64,000 nucleotides of DNA, taken from Armatimonadota bacterium (GTDB lineage: Bacteria > Armatimonadota > SYMT01). The stretch lies in contig JAWLHY010000013.1 of assembly GCA_041690135.1 (NCBI GenBank), positions 180,921 through 244,920 on the forward strand. The letters are read 5' to 3'. Positions 27,178 to 36,839 of the stretch are shown one piece after another. The notes below the pieces were generated by a model. That model ran no database searches. It saw only the letters and a program-made list of their open reading frames with translations, and had not been told where the DNA came from. A program made the position numbers and the translations under genes. Numbering within the stretch: the stretch's first letter is position 1; the number at the start of each line of letters is the position of its first letter.

Positions 27178-28611
27178 TCAGGCCTTCTGGAGAAGCTCGC
27201 GGATCGGTTTGCCATGGCCGTCGCGGGTGACGTAGAAGGGTCGCTTCTCGATCTCGTAGGCCAGCTTGGGGGAAATGCCGAGCGTGTGGTACATCGTGGC
27301 GTGAAGGTCCTCGATGATCACCGGCTTCTCGATCGTTTTGCAGGGGCGCTCGTCCGCCGTGACACCGTGGAGGTGGCCCTTCTTCACGCCGCCGCCGAAC
27401 ATCAGCACGCAGCCCGCGTCGGTGAAGTGGCGGTGCATGCCGTAGTGCTTGCGCTCGGTAATCACGTCGGGGACCTCGACCTGGTTCTTGATCAGCTTGT
27501 CCGGCTTGCCTTCCATCATCATGTCGCGGCTGAACTCGCTGGCGAGCACGATCAGAGTGCGGTCGAGGAGGCCGCGCTCTTCCAGGTCGCGGACGAGCTG
27601 GGCGATGGGCGCATCGATCAGGCGCTTCATCTCCACCAGGCGGTCGTGGCCGTTGTCGTGGGTGTCCCAGCCGAAGAACGGCACGTATTCAGTGGTCACT
27701 TCGATGTAGCGGGCGCCGGCTTCCGTTAGGCGGCGGGCGAGCAGACAGCCGAGGCCGAACCGGCCGGTGTTATAGATGTCGTAGGACTGCCGAGGCTCCA
27801 GCGCCAGGTCGAACGCCTTAGCGGCGGGAGAGCTGAGGAGCCGGTAGGCGTTGTCCAGGGAGCGCAGCAGCGACTCTTTCTGGTAGTCGCTGCCGTACTT
27901 ATTGATCGGGCTGTTCTTTACCAGGCTCTTGTAGAACTTTTGCCGGCTCTCGAAGCGGGACGGGCTCATGCCGCGGGGTGGGCGGACCGCCTCCACGGCC
28001 TGTTCCGGGTAGGGCACGTTGAACGGGCCATACTCGCTGCCCAGGAACCCCGCCGTTGTGAAGGCCTTGAGCTCCTCCCCCTCCCCCACGTCGAACCGCT
28101 GGCCGATGTTGATGAAGGCGGGCACGGCCGGGTTCTTGGGTCCGAGCGTCCGCGCGATCACCGCCCCGATGTGGGGACAGGCGACCGTCTGCGGCGGCGC
28201 GTAGCCGGTGTGCCAGTAGAACTGGTGCCGCGAGTGGAGGATGAAGCCGAGGTCCGGGCCGGTGTACGTGCGGATCAGGGTGCCGCGATCCATCACGGCG
28301 GCGGTCTTCTCCAGGCCCTCGGAGAACCGGATCCCGTCCACGGCCGTGGGGATGGAGGGGAAGGTGCTGAGGACCTTCTCGGAAGGGGTGCCCGGCGCGA
28401 ACGGTGTGTAGCGCTTGGGGTCGAAGGTCTCCGTGTGCGCCATGCCGCCCCCCATCCAGAGGACGATCACGGTGTCGGCGGTGGCGGGGGATGGGCGCTG
28501 GGCTTCAGGCTTTGGGCTTTGGGCCGCGTGGATCGCCTGGGGATAGCCGGCGGCGAGGGCGGAGAGGGTCGCGGCGCTCGCGCTTTTCAGGAAGTCTCTT
28601 CGATCGTTCAT
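27178..28611 (-). CDS. DUF1501 domain protein (Tat substrate)
   Basis: DRRDFLK Tat motif, LWMGGGMAHTETFDPK, FGLGCLLARRL, GWDTH, SEFSR. Confidence 0.92.
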   Translation of the reverse strand: MNDRRDFLKSASAATLSALAAGYPQAIHAAQSPKPEAQRPSPATADTVIVLWMGGGMAHTETFDPKRYTPFAPGTPSEKVLSTFPSIPTAVDGIRFSEGLEKTAAVMDRGTLIRTYTGPDLGFILHSRHQFYWHTGYAPPQTVACPHIGAVIARTLGPKNPAVPAFINIGQRFDVGEGEELKAFTTAGFLGSEYGPFNVPYPEQAVEAVRPPRGMSPSRFESRQKFYKSLVKNSPINKYGSDYQKESLLRSLDNAYRLLSSPAAKAFDLALEPRQSYDIYNTGRFGLGCLLARRLTEAGARYIEVTTEYVPFFGWDTHDNGHDRLVEMKRLIDAPIAQLVRDLEERGLLDRTLIVLASEFSRDMMMEGKPDKLIKNQVEVPDVITERKHYGMHRHFTDAGCVLMFGGGVKKGHLHGVTADERPCKTIEKPVIIEDLHATMYHTLGISPKLAYEIEKRPFYVTRDGHGKPIRELLQKA

Positions 28612-28622
28612 ATCCGAATCCT

Positions 28623-31106
28623 TCAGTAGATCAACTGGAACTCGGGCAGCATCACCAGCGCCCAGAACAGGTCTTCCACACCTTCGCGGGTGGGCGGCGT
28701 GCCCAGGATCTCCTGCGCGGCACTCCGTTCCGCGGCAGAGGGCCGGCGTCCCAGGGCGCGCTCGTAGAGGGCCTCCGCCAGCGGGGCCTGCTTCTCGCTA
28801 CCCGGCACCCGGCCGCTCACCCAGTCCTCCGCGCCCTGGGCCAGCATCGACGCGAGCACCTGGCCGTTGGTCAGCTCCAGGGCCTGCAGCGTGGTGGCGA
28901 CTGGCGAGCGCCAGGTGACGATCTGTTCCCGGTTCGGCCGCCCCAGCGCGCGGGTCAGCGGGTCGGCCGTCGCCAGGGCGGCGCGGGCCTCGAGGAGCGG
29001 GCGGTCCGAGGTGACCACCAGCAACTGGAGGGAAGTCTGCGCCCCCGGCGTCTCGTGGGCGCCCGTGTCCGGACCGGCGGTCGCGCGGAAGCGGGTGGTC
29101 CCCGGCGGGAGCACGTAGGTGATGAAGGAATTGGCGTGGGTGCCGATCCCCGTCTTGAAGGTTCGGGTCCCCAGCCGCAGCGGCTTGTTGACCACGCTCC
29201 GGTTCAGGCGCACCTGGCCGTAGCCCGTGGTGGCCGACTGCCACTTGAGGGCCGTGAGGGAGGTCTCGCCTTTGGCGCCGACGAGGACCGGCTCCACCCA
29301 GTTGGCCCAGTCCGAGTTGCCGCCGTTGCCCCCGTCCAGGGTGATGAGCGTGAGAACCCGTGCCCCGGTGACGTCCACGTCCACTTCGACGGAGCCGCCC
29401 TTCAGCACCTCGCTCCGGAATTTCACCGCAGCCCGCCCCTCCGCCGCCAGGGCATCCAGGTCCGGCAGCTTCACCGGCGCGCCCGGCGCGGGAACGGACC
29501 ACACCCCGGTGAGGGAGGAGATCGCGTCCACGAACTGTTCCGCGGACATCCGCTTGACGGTGGGCCCGCGGAATACAAAGGCGGCGGCATCTTCCGAGGC
29601 CAGCATCATCGGCGGAAGCTGGTAGGCGCGCGAGGTGACGATCCGTTCCAGGGTCTTCTTCAAATCGTAGCCGTTCTGCACCAGGTCGGCGGCCAGCCAG
29701 TCCAGCAACTCCGGCGACCAGGGCCGGTGGTCCATCTCGTCGACCGGCTCGACCAGGCCCCGCCCCATCAACCGCTGCCAGAGGCGGTTCACGAGGGTCC
29801 GGGGCAGGCGACCGTTATTGCGGGAAAGCAGGATGGAAGCAAGCTGCTCCGCTCGCTTTTCCCGTGGAGCGGCGGGGTCGATGGCGCCCAGTTCCGGATA
29901 GAGGAACTTGACCGGCGCTACCTGGCCCGTCGGCTTGTCGCAGCGGACCATCTCCAGCGGCTTATCCGCGTAGATCCCCGCCATCCCATAGGCATCGGCC
30001 AGCTTCCAGGTGTTGATGAAGCTGTCGTGGCAGGAAGCGCACTTGAGGTTGATCCCCATGAAGATCTGCGAGATGCTCTGCGCCGCCTGCATCTGGGGGG
30101 TCTGGCTGGCATTCACCACGCCGCGCCAGACGATGCCCTTCACGAACCCCGCCGAGGCGGGCGTCGGGTTCACCAGCTCCGACACAAACCGGTCGTAAGG
30201 CTTGTTGGTCAGCAGCGCGTCGTAGAGCCAGCCGGTGATGGAGGCGCGGCCGCCGTCGATGTAGCCCGTCCCGATGTAGTCGTTGCGCAGGAGGTCGTTC
30301 CAGTACGAAAGCCAGTGCTCGGCGTAGCGGCGGTCGTCGGCCAGCAGCTTCCGGGCCAGGCGGGCGTGTTTGTCCGGTCCGCGGTCCGCTTCGAACTCCC
30401 GCAGTTCTGCCGGCGTGGGCAGGAGACCGATCAGGTCCAGGTAGACCCGCCGGGCGTAGGTCCGGTCGTCCACCACTTGCTGCGGCTGCACCTTGTGCGT
30501 GCGGAAATAGGAGGTCAGCAGCAGGTCGATCGGGTTCGAGAGCCCGGACCCGGGCGGGGCGGAGGGCACCCGCGGTGCGCCCAGCGCCAGCTTCGGCTTC
30601 CAGGTGTCCGCCGCCTTCGCGTTCCCGAAGCTGAGGCCCTGGTCGATCCAGGCGCGGAGCACCGCCACCTCGCGCGGCGCCAGGCGGGCTCCCTTGGGCG
30701 GCATGATCTTGCCCGGTACCTGGCCGGAAACGAGGCGGACCAGGTAACTCTGGGCGCCCTTGCCGGGCTGCACCACGGGGTGGGTGCTCTCGCTGCCGGT
30801 GAGGATCCCCTCCCGGCTGTCCACCTGGAAGCCGCCCAGACGCGTTCCGTTCCCGTGGCAGGCGTAGCACCGCGCCACCAGGATCGGCTTCACGTCCTTC
30901 TCATACGAGATGGGCGCCGGAGCGGTTTTCGCAGTCGGCCTGGGGGTTGTCTTTGGAGCGGCTTTGGCCGCCGCGGCGGGCTTCGCGGGAGCGGCCTTCC
31001 CCGCGCTAGACTTCACGGGCGCCGCCAGGGCGACCAGGGAAAGCGAGGAGAGCAGACCCAGCCCGGCCAGGCCCTGGAGGAGACGGTTGGAGGAGCGTAT
31101 GCGCAT
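28623..31106 (-). CDS. Planctomycete cytochrome c + DUF1549/DUF1553 protein with NPCBM/NEW2-like domain
   Basis: CYACHG, CASCHD, WSPELLDWLA, DGGNGGNSDWANW, GIGTHANS, WALVMLPEFQLIY. Confidence 0.88.
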   Translation of the reverse strand: MRIRSSNRLLQGLAGLGLLSSLSLVALAAPVKSSAGKAAPAKPAAAAKAAPKTTPRPTAKTAPAPISYEKDVKPILVARCYACHGNGTRLGGFQVDSREGILTGSESTHPVVQPGKGAQSYLVRLVSGQVPGKIMPPKGARLAPREVAVLRAWIDQGLSFGNAKAADTWKPKLALGAPRVPSAPPGSGLSNPIDLLLTSYFRTHKVQPQQVVDDRTYARRVYLDLIGLLPTPAELREFEADRGPDKHARLARKLLADDRRYAEHWLSYWNDLLRNDYIGTGYIDGGRASITGWLYDALLTNKPYDRFVSELVNPTPASAGFVKGIVWRGVVNASQTPQMQAAQSISQIFMGINLKCASCHDSFINTWKLADAYGMAGIYADKPLEMVRCDKPTGQVAPVKFLYPELGAIDPAAPREKRAEQLASILLSRNNGRLPRTLVNRLWQRLMGRGLVEPVDEMDHRPWSPELLDWLAADLVQNGYDLKKTLERIVTSRAYQLPPMMLASEDAAAFVFRGPTVKRMSAEQFVDAISSLTGVWSVPAPGAPVKLPDLDALAAEGRAAVKFRSEVLKGGSVEVDVDVTGARVLTLITLDGGNGGNSDWANWVEPVLVGAKGETSLTALKWQSATTGYGQVRLNRSVVNKPLRLGTRTFKTGIGTHANSFITYVLPPGTTRFRATAGPDTGAHETPGAQTSLQLLVVTSDRPLLEARAALATADPLTRALGRPNREQIVTWRSPVATTLQALELTNGQVLASMLAQGAEDWVSGRVPGSEKQAPLAEALYERALGRRPSAAERSAAQEILGTPPTREGVEDLFWALVMLPEFQLIY

Positions 31107-33722: not shown

Positions 33723-33756
33723 GGCCGGGCTGTAGAGAAACCAGCAGTCGGGCGCG

Positions 33757-33826
33757 GGGACTGTAGCTCAAGGGAAGAGTGCCCCCCTCAAGCGGGAAGT
33801 TGGCGGTTCGAGTCCGTCCAGTCTCT
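33757..33826 (+). ncRNA. tRNA-like element 1 (degenerate anticodon arm, extended acceptor stem, no CCA)
   Basis: GGGACTG TA GCTC AAGGGAA GAGT G CCCCCCTCAAGCGGG AAGTT GGCGG TTCGAGT CCGTC CAGTCTC; flanks GGCGCG/TGCGCC extend the stem. Confidence 0.7.
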
Positions 33827-33842
33827 GCGCCTCCTACCTGTG

Positions 33843-33914
33843 GAGACTGTAGCTCAAGGGAAGAGCGCCCACTTGTCACGTGGGGGGTTGGCGGTTCGAG
33901 TCCGTCCGGTCTCC
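33843..33914 (+). tRNA. tRNA-like element 2, anticodon GTC (Asp), atypical, no CCA
   Basis: GAGACTG TA GCTC AAGGGAA GAGC G CCCAC TTGTCAC GTGGG GGGTT GGCGG TTCGAGT CCGTC CGGTCTC C; complete cloverleaf. Confidence 0.7.
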
Positions 33915-33932
33915 GTGCCTCCAGCCCATCCG

Positions 33933-34004
33933 GAGACCGTAGTTCAAGGGAAGAGCACCCACTTGCTAAGTGGGAGGCTGACGGTTCGAGTCCGTCCGGT
34001 CTCC
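33933..34004 (+). tRNA. tRNA-like element 3, anticodon GCT (Ser) but short variable loop, no CCA
   Basis: GAGACCG TA GTTC AAGGGAA GAGC A CCCAC TTGCTAA GTGGG AGGCT GACGG TTCGAGT CCGTC CGGTCTC C; complete cloverleaf. Confidence 0.7.
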
Positions 34005-34040
34005 ACCTCCTTCCGGATCGAGTGACAAGGGTGGTGCAGT

Positions 34041-35528
34041 GTGGAACCCGTCGAAGGCTTCACTCCCGAAGAAAGGGATCTCTTTATCCGCATCCTCCAG
34101 CGGATTTCGGAGGATCCTTCCGTCATCGCCGGCGACGAGCGGATGAAGGGGTTGATCGCGAAGATCCACCGCCGGGGCAGGAAGGGGGAGCGGTTGGCCA
34201 ACCGCAGCCTGCAGCAACAGCAGGACGGTGAGCTTCGCCGGCACACCGCAACTGTCCGCCGTGACCTCGAGTCTCGCCCGCTCGCGGAAGCTGATGCCAC
34301 CGCCGCAGCCCTGACCGTGGGCGCCCTCCACCGGCCGGCTTCCTGTTACATCTGCAAACAGCGCTACACGGAGCTCCACTTCTTCTACCATTCGCTCTGT
34401 CCCCCTTGCGCTTCGCGGAACTATGCACGTCGTACGCAGCGCGCCGACCTGTCCGGCCGGACGGTGCTCTTAACAGGCGGCCGGATCAAGATCGGGTATC
34501 AACTGGCCCTGAAGCTCCTGCGGGACGGGGCGCGGGTCATCCTCACCACCCGCTTCCCGGCGGACGCCCTCCGGCGCCTGGCCTCCGAGGGTGACTTCAC
34601 GGAGTGGCGGCACCGCGTGGAGATCGTGGGGCTGGACCTCCGCAACTTGCCGGCCGTGGAAGCTTTTGCGCACCGGCTGCTGGAGACGGAGCCCCACCTG
34701 GATATCCTCATCAACAACGCTGCGCAAACGATCAAACGTCCCCTCGCCTTCTACCGGCACCTTCTGGATCGGGAAGAAAGCCCCGCACTGCTGGAAGCGC
34801 TGCCCGGCTACCCGGCCGAACCCTTCTCTCGTTTCAGCACCGCTCCGGTGCTCCCAGTGAACGGAGCGGAACACGGGGAGATGCACTCCGGGCGTGAGAC
34901 AGTGGAGATCACCCCAACACCGATGTTGCCGCCGCCCACCGCTAGGGGCGATGGTGCCTGCGTGAGCGGGCTTCTGCCGGACCACCTCTTTTCCCCGCCC
35001 GGAGAATGCGATCCGGACGGCCAGCAGGTAGACCGCCGTCCCCAGAACAGTTGGGCTTTGCGCCAGCACGAGGTCACCACGCTGGAATTGCTCGAGGTGC
35101 ATCTCGTCAACGCGGTCGCTCCGTTCATCCTCTGCCGGGAACTGCGTCCGCTGTTCCTGCGCTCTCCCTTCTCACGGCGGTTCATCATCAACGTCTCCGC
35201 GATGGAAGGCCAGTTCGCGCGGCAGAGCAAGACGGAGCACCATCCGCACACCAACATGGCCAAGGCCGCGCTGAATATGCTGACCCGCACCGCCGCCGCG
35301 GACTTCGCCCGCGACGGGATCTCCATGAACAGCGTCGATACCGGCTGGATCACCGACGAAAAGCCCTTCGACCGCCGGAGGCAGCACCAGGAGGAGGGGT
35401 TCTTCACTCCGCTCGACGCGGTGGACGGCGCCGCTCGTGTCTACGACCCCGTAGTCCGCGGGCTAACGGAGGCGGACGAGCCGCTGTGGGGCCAGTTCTT
35501 GAAGGACTACGCGCCCCACCCCTGGTAG
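34041..35528 (+). CDS. Atypical SDR family oxidoreductase with N-terminal CxxC...CxxC zinc finger
   Basis: CYICK...CPPC, TGGRIKIG, NNAAQT, NVSAMEGQF, HPHTNMAKAALNM (no YxxxK tyrosine), VDTGWIT. Confidence 0.85.
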   Translation: MEPVEGFTPEERDLFIRILQRISEDPSVIAGDERMKGLIAKIHRRGRKGERLANRSLQQQQDGELRRHTATVRRDLESRPLAEADATAAALTVGALHRPASCYICKQRYTELHFFYHSLCPPCASRNYARRTQRADLSGRTVLLTGGRIKIGYQLALKLLRDGARVILTTRFPADALRRLASEGDFTEWRHRVEIVGLDLRNLPAVEAFAHRLLETEPHLDILINNAAQTIKRPLAFYRHLLDREESPALLEALPGYPAEPFSRFSTAPVLPVNGAEHGEMHSGRETVEITPTPMLPPPTARGDGACVSGLLPDHLFSPPGECDPDGQQVDRRPQNSWALRQHEVTTLELLEVHLVNAVAPFILCRELRPLFLRSPFSRRFIINVSAMEGQFARQSKTEHHPHTNMAKAALNMLTRTAAADFARDGISMNSVDTGWITDEKPFDRRRQHQEEGFFTPLDAVDGAARVYDPVVRGLTEADEPLWGQFLKDYAPHPW

Positions 35529-35569: not shown

Positions 35570-35632
35570 TGGAAGGGTGGGGTGTGGAAGAGTGGGAGTG
35601 TGGGAGTGTGGAAGAGTGGGAGTGTGGAAGGG
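35570..35632. repeat. Degenerate octamer repeat (GTGGGAGT/GTGGAAGA)
   Basis: Read directly between the SDR and LRR genes. Confidence 0.75.
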
Positions 35633-35639
35633 TAAAGGA

Positions 35640-36839
35640 ATGGAGAAGCAAGCTCCCGAGTCAGGCATGTCCGAGCGGTCAACGGAGATAGCGCCGATCC
35701 GCTGCCCCGTGGGCGATCCCTATGCCCTCGTTCCGTGTGATCCGGACGAGATCTCGCCCCTGCTTCAGCACCTTCTCAGCGATGCTGCGGTCGACGCTCC
35801 CGCGGTGTTTCCACGGGGGACCCTGCTTCCGGATGGGCGCCTCGACCTGTGCAAGCAGAGCCTTGGCCCCACCGGCTGTCGCATGGTAGTCCAGGGCGTC
35901 GCGCGGAGTGCCCGGGTGCGGAGCCTGCTGCTGGGAACCAACGCCATTGGGGACGCGGGCGTTGCCGACGTGGCGGACCTGATCTCCCGCAACCCCTCGG
36001 TGGAGATCCTCTACCTGGGCTGCAACCGGATCTCGGCAGCGGGTGCGGAGCGACTGGCCGAAGCCCTCTCCGGGAACACCACCGTCACCGGCCTGTGGCT
36101 GAAACGGAACCCACTCGGGCCCCCGGGTATGGCCGCACTGGCCGGCATGCTCCGGCGTAACCGTACCCTGCGCACCCTCGATCTGGTGAACACCCAGCCC
36201 GGAGCGGAAGGGTTGGCGGTCCTCCTCGACGCGCTGATCGAAGAGAACCGAACGGTGGAGCGCCTGTACCTCGGCGGCAACGGCGTCACGCCCGAAGTGG
36301 CGGAGCGCTTGAAGGAGCTCCTGCGCCGAAACCTGCGGGTTCGCGCTCTCCTGCTCAACGTCAACCCGTTGGGCGATGCCGGTGTCGAGGCCCTGGCGGA
36401 GGGTCTCCGGTCGAACCCTACCCTGGAGGAATTGGGGCTCGCCAGTTGCGGAGTTACTGGCGAGGGGGCGAGCCGGCTGTTCCAGGCGCTGGCGCGGCAC
36501 CCGGCCCTGCGTATTCTCGACCTCGGCTACAGCCCTTCCACACGGGTACTCGGAGCCGTGGGCAATTCCCTGGGCGATTCCGGGGCGGAGGCGGCCTCAA
36601 TGTTCCTGTCCGCCAATCCCCCACTCCGGCGGCTGAACTTGCAACGGAACGGTATCGGCGGGGAGGGCAGGCGGCGCCTGGCGGAAGCGCTCGGTGGCAA
36701 CACCCACCTCGTGGAGCTGACCCTGGACGGCACCCCGGATCCGCGGATCACGGCACGGCTGGAGCAGAACCGCGCCCGAACGGGAGAGGTGCCGGTTTGT
36801 TCTCCCGATGTGGCGCTGATCCGGAGCGTCTACCGGTAG
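35640..36839 (+). CDS. Ribonuclease-inhibitor/GALA-type leucine-rich repeat protein
   Basis: About ten 28-aa repeats of LxxLxLxxNxIgxxG (LLLGTNAIGDAG, LYLGCNRISAAG, LWLKRNPLGPPG); AAAGGA SD. Confidence 0.88.
   Translation: MEKQAPESGMSERSTEIAPIRCPVGDPYALVPCDPDEISPLLQHLLSDAAVDAPAVFPRGTLLPDGRLDLCKQSLGPTGCRMVVQGVARSARVRSLLLGTNAIGDAGVADVADLISRNPSVEILYLGCNRISAAGAERLAEALSGNTTVTGLWLKRNPLGPPGMAALAGMLRRNRTLRTLDLVNTQPGAEGLAVLLDALIEENRTVERLYLGGNGVTPEVAERLKELLRRNLRVRALLLNVNPLGDAGVEALAEGLRSNPTLEELGLASCGVTGEGASRLFQALARHPALRILDLGYSPSTRVLGAVGNSLGDSGAEAASMFLSANPPLRRLNLQRNGIGGEGRRRLAEALGGNTHLVELTLDGTPDPRITARLEQNRARTGEVPVCSPDVALIRSVYR

Follow-up and report, generated by a model that had tools for sequence, protein, structure and literature searches.

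Directly ahead of two protein genes, the genome of an Armatimonadota bacterium carries a short row of genes that fold like tRNAs, and the question they raise is whether these are ordinary tRNAs used in translation or something else. The row lies in a stretch of 64,000 nucleotides (nt) from GenBank assembly GCA_041690135.1 (contig JAWLHY010000013.1, positions 180,921 to 244,920 of the forward strand), which we call the window. An earlier interpretation made from the letters alone (the sequence-only reading) had proposed three tRNA-like cloverleafs in tandem, spaced by 86 and 90 nt. ARAGORN and Rfam agree: over the whole 64-kb window ARAGORN calls exactly three tRNA genes, at 33756-33828 (caa), 33842-33915 (gtc), and 33932-34007 (gct), all on the + strand and with starts 86 and 90 nt apart, and Rfam RF00005 matches each of them (gathering score 29; E-values from 4e-6 to 6e-11). 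Our analysis shows that these units are members of a conserved class of RNA genes with the shape of a tRNA, in which an acceptor stem of 8 base pairs (bp), in some members 9, sits on a 5-bp T stem. It also shows that they are the RNA part of a three-part cassette, made of the array, a gene for a Zn-ribbon protein of the short-chain dehydrogenase/reductase (SDR) type, and a gene for an RNI-type leucine-rich repeat (LRR) protein. The components in the window are listed here, with the scores given by Rfam and by R1, the covariance model of the class described below.

33756-33829, + strand: tRNA-like unit 1, 8-bp acceptor including two G.U pairs, CAA-type loop, the weakest copy (called by ARAGORN; Rfam 44.2 bits, R1 71.9 bits)
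33842-33917, + strand: tRNA-like unit 2, 8-bp acceptor, loop TTGTCAC (GTC), 5-nt variable loop (Rfam 58.9 bits, R1 86.6 bits)
33932-34007, + strand: tRNA-like unit 3, 8-bp acceptor, loop TTGCTAA (GCT), without long variable arm, then ACC (Rfam 61.7 bits, R1 90.1 bits)
34041-35528, + strand: Zn-ribbon SDR gene, 495 amino acids (aa), starting 33 nt after unit 3; its homologues lie downstream of arrays
35577-36839, + strand: gene for the RNI-type LRR protein (LRR_6), following the SDR gene

The three units and their RNA class

The units have many features of a canonical tRNA: U8, A14, G18G19, T54-Psi55-C56, and a T stem of 5 bp. The 7-nt anticodon loops of units 2 and 3 include U33. The acceptor of the units is not the canonical one of 7 bp, which would give a 12-bp acceptor branch: in all three units, the eight bases ahead of U8 pair with the 3' strand. 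The extra G:C pair that results in an 8-bp acceptor in units 2 and 3 had been noticed in the sequence-only reading, and we confirm it, together with the common D arm (GCTC-AAGGGAA-GAGC) and T arm (GGCGG-TTCGAGT-CCGTC), the GTC and GCT loops of units 2 and 3, and the lack of an encoded CCA, which follows none of the three units. Other details had to be revised. The stem of unit 1, thought to be extended by about 6 bp, is extended by 4 bp (GCGC/GCGC). The C73 described in the Asp unit holds only if the acceptor is read as 7 bp; with the 8-bp stem, the next base is G in the first two units and A in the third. Finally, unit 1 had been given a shortened loop, CCTCAAG/CTCAA, centred on TCA. The odd loop over a weak stem is indeed there, with two C.A mismatches weakening the anticodon stem, but the register is CAA in the 7-nt loop found by ARAGORN (CTCAAGC). 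A well-formed counterpart in another genome has the loop CTCAAGA, and unit 1 is best read, from such comparisons, as a CAA unit. When folded singly, unit 1 does not have the cloverleaf as its minimum free energy structure (z +0.27). For unit 2 this structure coincides fully with the 8-bp cloverleaf (z -1.5), and unit 3 reaches a z of -3.8.

Could these units be regular members of the host's tRNA set? The genome (9.1 Mb in 25 contigs) has 71 ARAGORN calls. Its ordinary tRNAs include two copies of tRNA-Asp(GUC), a tRNA-Ser(GCU) of 91 nt, a tRNA-Leu(CAA) of 87 nt, a tRNA-His, and a tRNA-Sec of 99 nt, and canonical tRNAs cover all three anticodons of the units. The latter are about 85% alike, with different loops. 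Compared in pairs, they agree at 59-64 of around 74 positions, and none of the 68 remaining tRNA calls agrees with a unit at more than 52. The units are thus additional to the host set and unlike it. Among the ordinary tRNAs of the host, base -1 can pair with base 73 in 12 of 47, and this pair is G:C only in tRNA-His. Unit 1 (CAA) and unit 3 (GCU) lack the identity elements that would suit their anticodons, as their variable loops measure 3-5 nt. The long variable arm, already reported missing from the Ser-anticodon unit 3, is a matter of direct comparison here, the true tRNA-Ser(GCU) of the host being the 91-nt gene.

A DNA search of 61 related genomes returned mostly ordinary tRNAs and two loci with arrays on the same scaffold and other anticodon sets: caa, gct, gtc, and ggc in genome G050, and gca, an insert-bearing unit, tgc, and cca in genome G010. 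Both arrays are directly upstream of an SDR homologue. The search found no match in the 6 genomes of the host's own family. The sequence-only reading had advised building a covariance model and recording the genes around its matches; this was done, and it revealed a conserved class beside the same two protein genes. For 16 aligned units from six genomes (mean column identity 71%), the consensus fold from RNAalifold is a cloverleaf whose acceptor has 8 bp, with compensatory changes in 15 of the 22 pairs. The model R1 was built from these 16 units. In the host genome, where the window units have the R1 scores listed above, the best ordinary tRNA reaches 63.4 bits.

The structure is further supported by an alignment of 63 members, with a fit to R1 that favours the structure somewhat. 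Of its cells, 97.5% are paired; this share falls to 69.3% on shuffling and to 56% or less once the partner is shifted. Both sides have changed in 21 of the 22 pairs. The outermost, eighth acceptor pair is kept in 58 of the 63 members (GC 46, AU 7, GU 5, unpaired 5), and 99% of the cells are paired in the T stem, which has 5 bp. This covariation supports the 8-bp cloverleaf. The body is that of a class I cloverleaf with all the usual tertiary-contact bases, a 4-bp D stem closed by a short 7-nt D-loop (AAnGGAA), and a variable loop of 4-5 nt. Some members have a ninth acceptor pair, formed by an upstream G with a downstream C. The extra 5' G paired with a C after a 7-bp stem recalls tRNA-His, which is defined by G-1:C73 together with GUG. 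Unlike tRNA-His, the units lack this anticodon (GTG occurs in 0 of 148 loops), and their 8-bp stem is usually followed by A, then C (A in 90 of 175 units, AC in 54 of 175). Because of this, the helix is more likely to be a true 8-bp stem with its own discriminator than one of the tRNA-His type.

Within a few bases 3' of each window unit there is a CCTCC that looks like an anti-Shine-Dalgarno motif (33826-33840, GCGCCTCCTA; 33915-33926, GTGCCTCCAG; 34004-34015, CACCTCCTT). It was not seen in the flanks of units at other loci and was therefore probably copied together with the spacer. A promoter/terminator scan of the locus gave one weak promoter-like site, inside the upstream open reading frame (ORF), and no terminator.

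The same genome has a second array outside the window, of about 10 atypical tRNA genes on the - strand (L333 6413-7694, which is G000:C4:52411-53694). Among them are genes with Leu anticodons on bodies of 74-76 nt without the long arm, and several have 8-bp acceptors. With R1 scores of at most 63 bits, they fall outside the class described here. They neighbour an RNA ligase gene (PF09414), a methyltransferase gene, an unknown 549-aa ORF, and a ResIII/DEAD helicase gene. The locus looks like a tRNA-supply and RNA-repair island.

A cassette of RNA array, SDR gene, and LRR gene

How constant is the company of the units? The loci considered here come from pattern-seeded scans, and the counts of listed loci include related strains and do not represent independent samples. 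In the host's phylum, Armatimonadota, an SDR homologue is found in 39 of 301 genomes. We searched 38 SDR-positive and 42 SDR-negative genomes of this phylum with R1. Matches of at least 76 bits were found only in SDR-positive genomes (G010, G050, G133, G138, G156, G187, G209, G255, and G183) and all adjoin the SDR gene, save in G183. The best match in the 42 SDR-negative genomes, at 74.7 bits, is an ordinary tRNA-Met. The remaining SDR-positive genomes of the phylum have a solitary SDR gene. The number of units per locus varies from 1 to 9, with seven in G096 and nine in G031 among the larger loci and a single unit in 17 of the listed ones.

The LRR gene is tied to the arrays. It follows the SDR gene in 10 of 13 array sources, the exceptions being L167 (contig end), G183 (no SDR), and G031. 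Among 110 SDR loci (30 of the host's phylum and 80 actinobacterial), the LRR gene occurs at 5, all of them array loci, and among 84 further SDR loci it occurs only at L170, L174, L175, and L184, which are all array loci or contig mates. It is absent from the SDR loci without arrays (80 actinobacterial, 24 of the host's phylum, and 78 others).

A scan with the LRR alignment gave at least 80 loci under ten NCBI phylum labels. According to record titles and labels, the carriers include members of Armatimonadota, Abditibacteriota, Planctomycetota, Acidobacteriota, Cyanobacteriota (Microcoleus, Microseira, Tychonema, Chamaesiphon, and Scytonema), Pseudomonadota (Massilia, Undibacterium, Variovorax, Albitalea, Parabeggiatoa, and a metagenome-assembled genome (MAG) of Rhodanobacteraceae), Chloroflexota (Herpetosiphon), Bacteroidota (Xanthocytophaga and Hymenobacter), Actinomycetota (Actinoallomurus and Acrocarpospora), and Myxococcota (Corallococcus). 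Culturable carriers are found among them, such as Massilia atriviolacea, Undibacterium pigrum, Variovorax sp. OK212, Herpetosiphon llansteffanensis, and Corallococcus terminator. At the listed LRR loci, R1 has 173 matches in 79 loci, and 170 of these are on the strand of the genes. Of these loci, 69 were informative, having 2200 nt or more of sequence ahead of the LRR gene. The SDR gene is directly upstream of the LRR gene in 65 of them, and units are present on the gene strand in 59 at E<=1e-9 and in 64 at E<=1e-3. The five loci with the weaker matches are L295, L309, L316, L320, and L330, of which L309 is doubtful. The gap between the last unit and the start of the SDR match is mostly of 25-70 nt. 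In 55 full-length loci, the only conserved neighbours are the SDR (53) and LRR (55) genes. In the absence of further conserved neighbours, the cassette can be called self-contained, and its contexts vary. The window has the same order, with units that end at 34007, the SDR gene from 34041 (a gap of 33 nt), and the LRR gene from 35577.

A few loci show variations in the arrangement. In L160 (10255-10328), L264 (6205-6278), and L259 (3795-3868), the LRR gene is closely followed by one more class-like unit (53-58 bits), whose anticodon is GCT in L160 and L264; the cassette can thus be bracketed by units. At two loci the arrays contain a gene for a protein of about 315 aa (L184 1581-2528 and 2833-3798, + strand; L163 8775-9740, - strand), which has no match in Pfam, NCBIfam, or PDB. 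One of these loci has two paralogues of it that are 52% identical, and the protein could be an optional fourth component. A neighbour in Undibacterium was considered as a relative of this protein and turned out to be unrelated. In G183 (L168, G183:C1:6028000-6044000), units of 72-77 bits are found, without an SDR gene, beside genes for a DUF2201 metallopeptidase/VWA protein, a MoxR-like AAA_5 protein, and an LRV-repeat protein. The same DUF2201/VWA, AAA_5, and LRV genes flank the cassette convergently in G050 (L158 10746-15722). Elsewhere in the window, at 27178-31106 on the - strand, there is a DUF1501 gene with a PSCyt1/PSCyt2/PSD1/NPCBM gene, a pair that is typical of Planctomycetota and Verrucomicrobiota; the phylum label of the genome is Armatimonadota.

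The two protein partners

The SDR protein begins with a helical and basic region, followed by a zinc ribbon of the form CxxC..CxxC (C102, C105, C120, and C123) and a divergent SDR domain. In an alignment of 42 sequences of the family, the motifs TGGRIKIG and HPHTNMAK are invariant, the Lys of YxxxK is kept, and a Thr occupies the position of the catalytic Tyr. The family therefore lacks the classical SDR hallmarks, which are the TGxxxGxG cofactor motif and the Tyr of YxxxK. Pfam adh_short matches the protein in two pieces, all NCBIfam matches are far below the cut-off, and a PDB sequence search with the whole protein retrieves ordinary SDRs. For the two proteins together, Pfam and NCBIfam give generic SDR and LRR matches only, and PADLOC has no match for either. 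A profile of the N-terminal 130 residues of the SDR protein matched nothing significantly in PDB (best E 0.55), and a search of the ESM Atlas with a homologue gave only sub-threshold, unnamed clusters. Among 1.84 billion representatives, the profile of the N-terminal domain matched 1644 proteins; of the 150 matches listed, the four longest are SDR-type by Pfam, one being a fusion with an LRR, and most others are short fragments.

The SDR protein is also frequent on its own. A scan with the single protein gave at least 80 loci, mostly actinobacterial, and none of the 80 listed has an array. These solitary paralogues are widespread without array or LRR gene and have the same conserved residues; in 16 loci, we found no conserved neighbour of them. 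Some genomes carry solitary and array-linked paralogues (G138 and G031). In a FastTree phylogeny of 121 SDRs, the 16 array-linked rows need 4 state changes, against 15.3 in shuffles, and the window SDR pairs with a protein of an Armatimonadota MAG that also has a unit. In 14 of the 80 listed loci, from Rhodococcus, Prescottella, and relatives (L023, L025, L030, L037, L041, L045, L051, L052, L060, L079, L080, L090, L091, and L096), a canonical tRNA-Leu(GAG) of 87-89 nt lies upstream of the solitary SDR gene, on the same strand and from 90 nt to several kb away, some of them with two copies. This adjacency is probably local synteny.

The LRR family is large, with at least 1180 clusters at E<=1e-20, and bears the source names 'ribonuclease inhibitor' or RanGAP-like. 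Because homologues align only from about residue 31-41 of the annotated protein of the window, translation probably starts at the ATG at 35640 or at that at 35667. A natural fusion, P0377 (920 aa), joins a complete LRR protein to a complete SDR protein with its own N-terminal domain. Its LRR part is 43% identical to the window LRR over 371 aa, up to the C-terminal RSVYR motif. This fusion supports the view that the SDR and LRR proteins may be physical partners. Another protein, P0240 (650 aa, on a 5-kb contig), was discarded as a functional fusion: it has the first 238 SDR residues, with damaged Cys and Gly motifs, and a full LRR, and is probably the product of an internal deletion of the cassette.

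Anticodon loops and the role of the units

We surveyed the loops of 175 units and found a length of 7 nt in 148; near-duplicates from related strains are included and the registers rest on the model alignment. Among these 148 loops, the anticodons are those of Ala (40, including 26 TGC), Gly (15), Trp (15), Glu (14), Asp (13), Ser-GCT (11), Met (10), Arg (9), Cys (5), Leu-CAA (5), TCA (4), and Val-GAC (4), whereas those of Phe, Tyr, His, Asn, Gln, Pro, Thr, and Ile are absent. Many whole loops are identical to canonical extended loops, as is the case of CTGTCAC, CTTTCAC, CTCCAAA, TTGCTAA, TTGCCAA, and CTCATAA, for which the canonical forms are in part general knowledge. Compared with the host tRNAs, the loop of the Ser-GCU unit is identical and that of the Asp unit differs at position 32. 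In the register of the model alignment, A37 is present in 121 of 145 loops and U33 in 100 of 145 (45, or 31%, are without it), against 58 of 58 for U33 in the other tRNAs of the host. The content of the arrays varies among close strains: Massilia arrays have GGC, GCC, or TGC, and those of Microcoleus have ATC and TGC, AGC and TGC, or GGC or TGC alone.

Charging would also be affected. The identity of tRNAs depends on a long variable arm for Ser and Leu and on G3:U70 for Ala. The latter pair was not seen in the TGC and GGC units checked by eye, which are a partial set. Given the lack of the long arm or of G3:U70, the units with Ser, Leu, and Ala anticodons are predicted to be such that they cannot be charged cognately. 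The central claim of the sequence-only reading, that these are not ordinary translation tRNAs and that they form a structurally conserved class, is supported: the redundancy with the host tRNAs, the absent identity features, the loss of U33, and the covarying 8-bp acceptor all indicate that the units are not ordinary decoders.

Are the units instances of a known system? In type III toxin-antitoxin (TA) systems such as ToxIN, too, structured RNA units stand in tandem just ahead of the protein gene or genes on which they act, and in the same orientation. In those systems the repeats are near-identical and the gene is of the ToxN/AbiQ type, whereas the units are tRNA-shaped, around 85% alike, 1 to 9 in number, and linked to the SDR and LRR families, without match in PADLOC. 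An SDR-fold protein is part of a tRNA-binding complex in the mitochondrial RNase P subcomplex SDR5C1 (HSD17B10)-TRMT10C; beyond the SDR fold, a specific relationship with our protein is not detectable, the cassette has no methyltransferase or nuclease partner, and its setting is bacterial. Like tRNA-Sec, the units have a 13-bp acceptor/T helix (8 + 5 bp), which in tRNA-Sec shuts out EF-Tu and reserves the tRNA for proteins dedicated to it, according to a portion of PMC7609411. Unlike it, they have a variable loop of 4-5 nt in place of a long arm, a D stem of 4 bp and not 6, many anticodons (TCA, the counterpart of UCA, in only 4 of 148), and neither SelA nor SelB nearby. The allo-tRNAs, selC* tRNAs, and irregular tRNA polycistrons (Mukai et al., NAR 2016/17, PMC5389517, in excerpt) are similar in having a non-canonical acceptor, diverse anticodons on one body, polycistrons, members with G-1, and a doubtful use in translation. 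In that excerpt, however, they have a 12-bp branch (8/4 or 9/3), mostly a long variable arm (Ser identity), and toxin-antitoxin or transposon contexts, whereas the units are 8/5 (some 9/5) and class I, with a 5-bp T stem, a variable loop of 4-5 nt, and the SDR-LRR gene pair. The tRNA-ProX/ProRSx pair of Streptomyces and Kitasatospora (parts of PMC10404621 and PMC11415595) is another case of an extra bacterial tRNA with an anticodon that does not fit its body, beside a dedicated protein gene; it has the canonical 7/5 fold and a synthetase paralogue as partner, in contrast to the SDR-like and LRR partners of the units. Each known system compared thus fails on at least one defining feature, and the units belong with the non-canonical bacterial tRNAs. 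A full-text literature search brought up no report in which tRNA-like arrays are paired with an SDR or LRR protein; supplements were outside its scope, and those of PMC5389517 might show related polycistrons. The cassette is apparently widespread and undescribed.

We consider it highly probable that the units are a dedicated, non-standard RNA component of the cassette. As for what they do, we favour the reading that they serve as baits, decoys, or ligands for readers of anticodon loops, which could be tRNA-cleaving or tRNA-modifying toxins or the cell's own enzymes, and we give this reading a probability of about 0.38. The array would be co-transcribed with the SDR and LRR genes and the units cut out by RNase P and RNase Z, which fits their position 25-70 nt upstream of a conserved gene. 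The released RNAs would then act in trans with both proteins, as an RNA-protein module, and the mimicry and turnover of the loops argue for such a trans-acting role. The uniform body would be the handle recognised by the proteins or by the processing enzymes, and the anticodon loop would be the variable specificity element, copying the loops of particular cellular isoacceptors. By analogy with tRNA-Sec, where an 8-bp acceptor lowers the affinity for EF-Tu (as told in part of PMC7609411), the longer acceptor helix would keep the units out of EF-Tu-dependent decoding. The LRR protein would be the binding or sensing partner and the SDR-like protein a nucleotide- or RNA-binding, or catalytic, partner. 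A function in conflict or surveillance would fit the patchy spread across phyla, the lack of other conserved neighbours, the fast turnover of the loops, and the sensor-like LRR.

Several observations weigh against this reading. The mimicry is imperfect, since A34 (ATC, AGC, or ATG) is found in 13 of the 148 loops and, to our knowledge, bacterial tRNAs do not normally carry A34 in these anticodons. At least three units have an insert of 25-49 nt in place of the loop, as at L167, where the acceptor, D, and T arms are kept and the anticodon arm is extended, and these would be poor mimics. The association has exceptions, with array and SDR but no LRR gene at L169 and L177, and units without an adjacent SDR gene in G183. 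As solitary SDR paralogues occur without arrays or LRR genes, the basic activity of the SDR protein would need no units and so be independent of tRNA-like RNAs. There is no nuclease, toxin, or known defence protein in the cassette, PADLOC has no match for either protein, and 'ribonuclease inhibitor' is only a source name for the repeat type. No LRR homologues were found in plasmid or phage collections at the thresholds used. Finally, the patchy spread of the cassette is compatible with a conflict function and does not show one.

Other explanations must be weighed against the same data. The units could be dedicated carriers or substrates, that is, charged or nucleoside-bearing RNAs with an attached group that the SDR-like enzyme transforms, the LRR protein being an accessory. 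The logic has precedents in the tRNA-dependent chemistry of Glu-tRNA reductase, SelA, and GatCAB. The tight operon linkage of RNAs and enzyme, the discriminator that is mostly A and often followed by C, and the zinc ribbon and basic N-terminal region, which could bind RNA, are in line with this idea, as is the long acceptor helix, a mark of tRNAs meant for special enzymes in the case of tRNA-Sec (same portion of PMC7609411). Yet the SDR protein is without catalytic Tyr and has an altered glycine motif, its solitary paralogues have the same conserved residues without such RNAs, many anticodons on one body and inserts in the loop would be unnecessary for a carrier, and the cassette has no aminoacyl-tRNA synthetase or transferase, which together make this role unlikely. 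We find it quite unlikely that the units are mistranslating or recoding tRNAs, where the common body would confer one amino-acid identity (e.g., via the extra G:C) for insertion, under some condition, at codons that include those for Asp, Ser, Ala, and Gly, much as in allo-tRNAs or tRNA-ProX. The single scaffold with its many anticodons and extended loops that resemble real ones, with their frequent A37, speak for it, and precedents exist in the HisRS that charges G-1 irregular tRNAs (PMC5389517, in excerpt) and in tRNA-ProX (PMC10404621, in part). Still, the irregular tRNAs charged by HisRS are unused in translation according to the former excerpt, and a 13-bp acceptor branch disfavours EF-Tu in the portion of PMC7609411 cited above. 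Moreover, many loops have lost U33, some units are without any anticodon loop, and no paralogue of a synthetase or elongation factor is found in the cassette.

The layout of an RNA repeat array upstream of the genes on the same strand matches that of ToxIN-type systems, and the patchy, self-contained cassette would suit a type III TA-like function in which the repeat RNA neutralises the protein pair and the loss of this labile RNA frees its toxicity. We regard this as very unlikely: the repeats are not near-identical and differ in their loops, the proteins are not ToxN/AbiQ-type RNases, solitary SDR genes without RNA are common, which would be odd for a toxin, and many loci have a single unit. 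A purely cis-acting leader, whose tRNA shapes recruit RNase P/Z for the 5' end or the stability of the mRNA and whose released RNAs are functionless, would account for the constant same-strand position upstream of the SDR gene, and co-transcripts of tRNA and mRNA are known in the tufB operon and in MALAT1 mascRNA. It is nonetheless very unlikely, because it leaves unexplained the compensated 8-bp stem, the isoacceptor-like loops, the biased anticodons, and arrays of up to 9 units, and because units can also stand behind the LRR gene (L160:10255; L264:6205) or, as in G183, away from the genes. The degenerate state of unit 1 and the other array of atypical tRNAs in the same genome could suggest decaying duplicates or integration scars of ordinary tRNA genes, without selected function, but a class that is conserved with covariation under ten phylum labels, always with the same two genes, makes this explanation scarcely credible.

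We thus return to units that act as baits, decoys, or ligands for anticodon-loop readers. Tentatively, we suggest that the cassette might be a new kind of RNA-protein system, in which tRNA shapes with exchangeable loops would be the programmable specificity module of Zn-ribbon SDR-like and RNI/NLR-type LRR proteins. Such a system might serve surveillance or defence, by sensing or absorbing attack on particular tRNA isoacceptors, or it might be an enzyme guided by tRNA. Since annotation labels the units as ordinary tRNA-Asp, tRNA-Ser, tRNA-Ala, etc., the tRNA gene sets of the carriers are inflated. The studies of tRNA-Sec, allo-tRNAs, and tRNA-ProX each opened a new view of the cellular use of the tRNA shape, and the class described here is defined by its structure, its covariation, and the two protein families that constantly accompany it. 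Through it, the Zn-ribbon SDR proteins, a very large family without a name, and the bacterial LRR proteins of the 'ribonuclease inhibitor' type become accessible to functional study for the first time. Its presence in culturable bacteria, such as Massilia, Undibacterium, Variovorax, Herpetosiphon, Corallococcus, and Microcoleus, makes testable the role of tRNA look-alikes that would be kept out of normal decoding.

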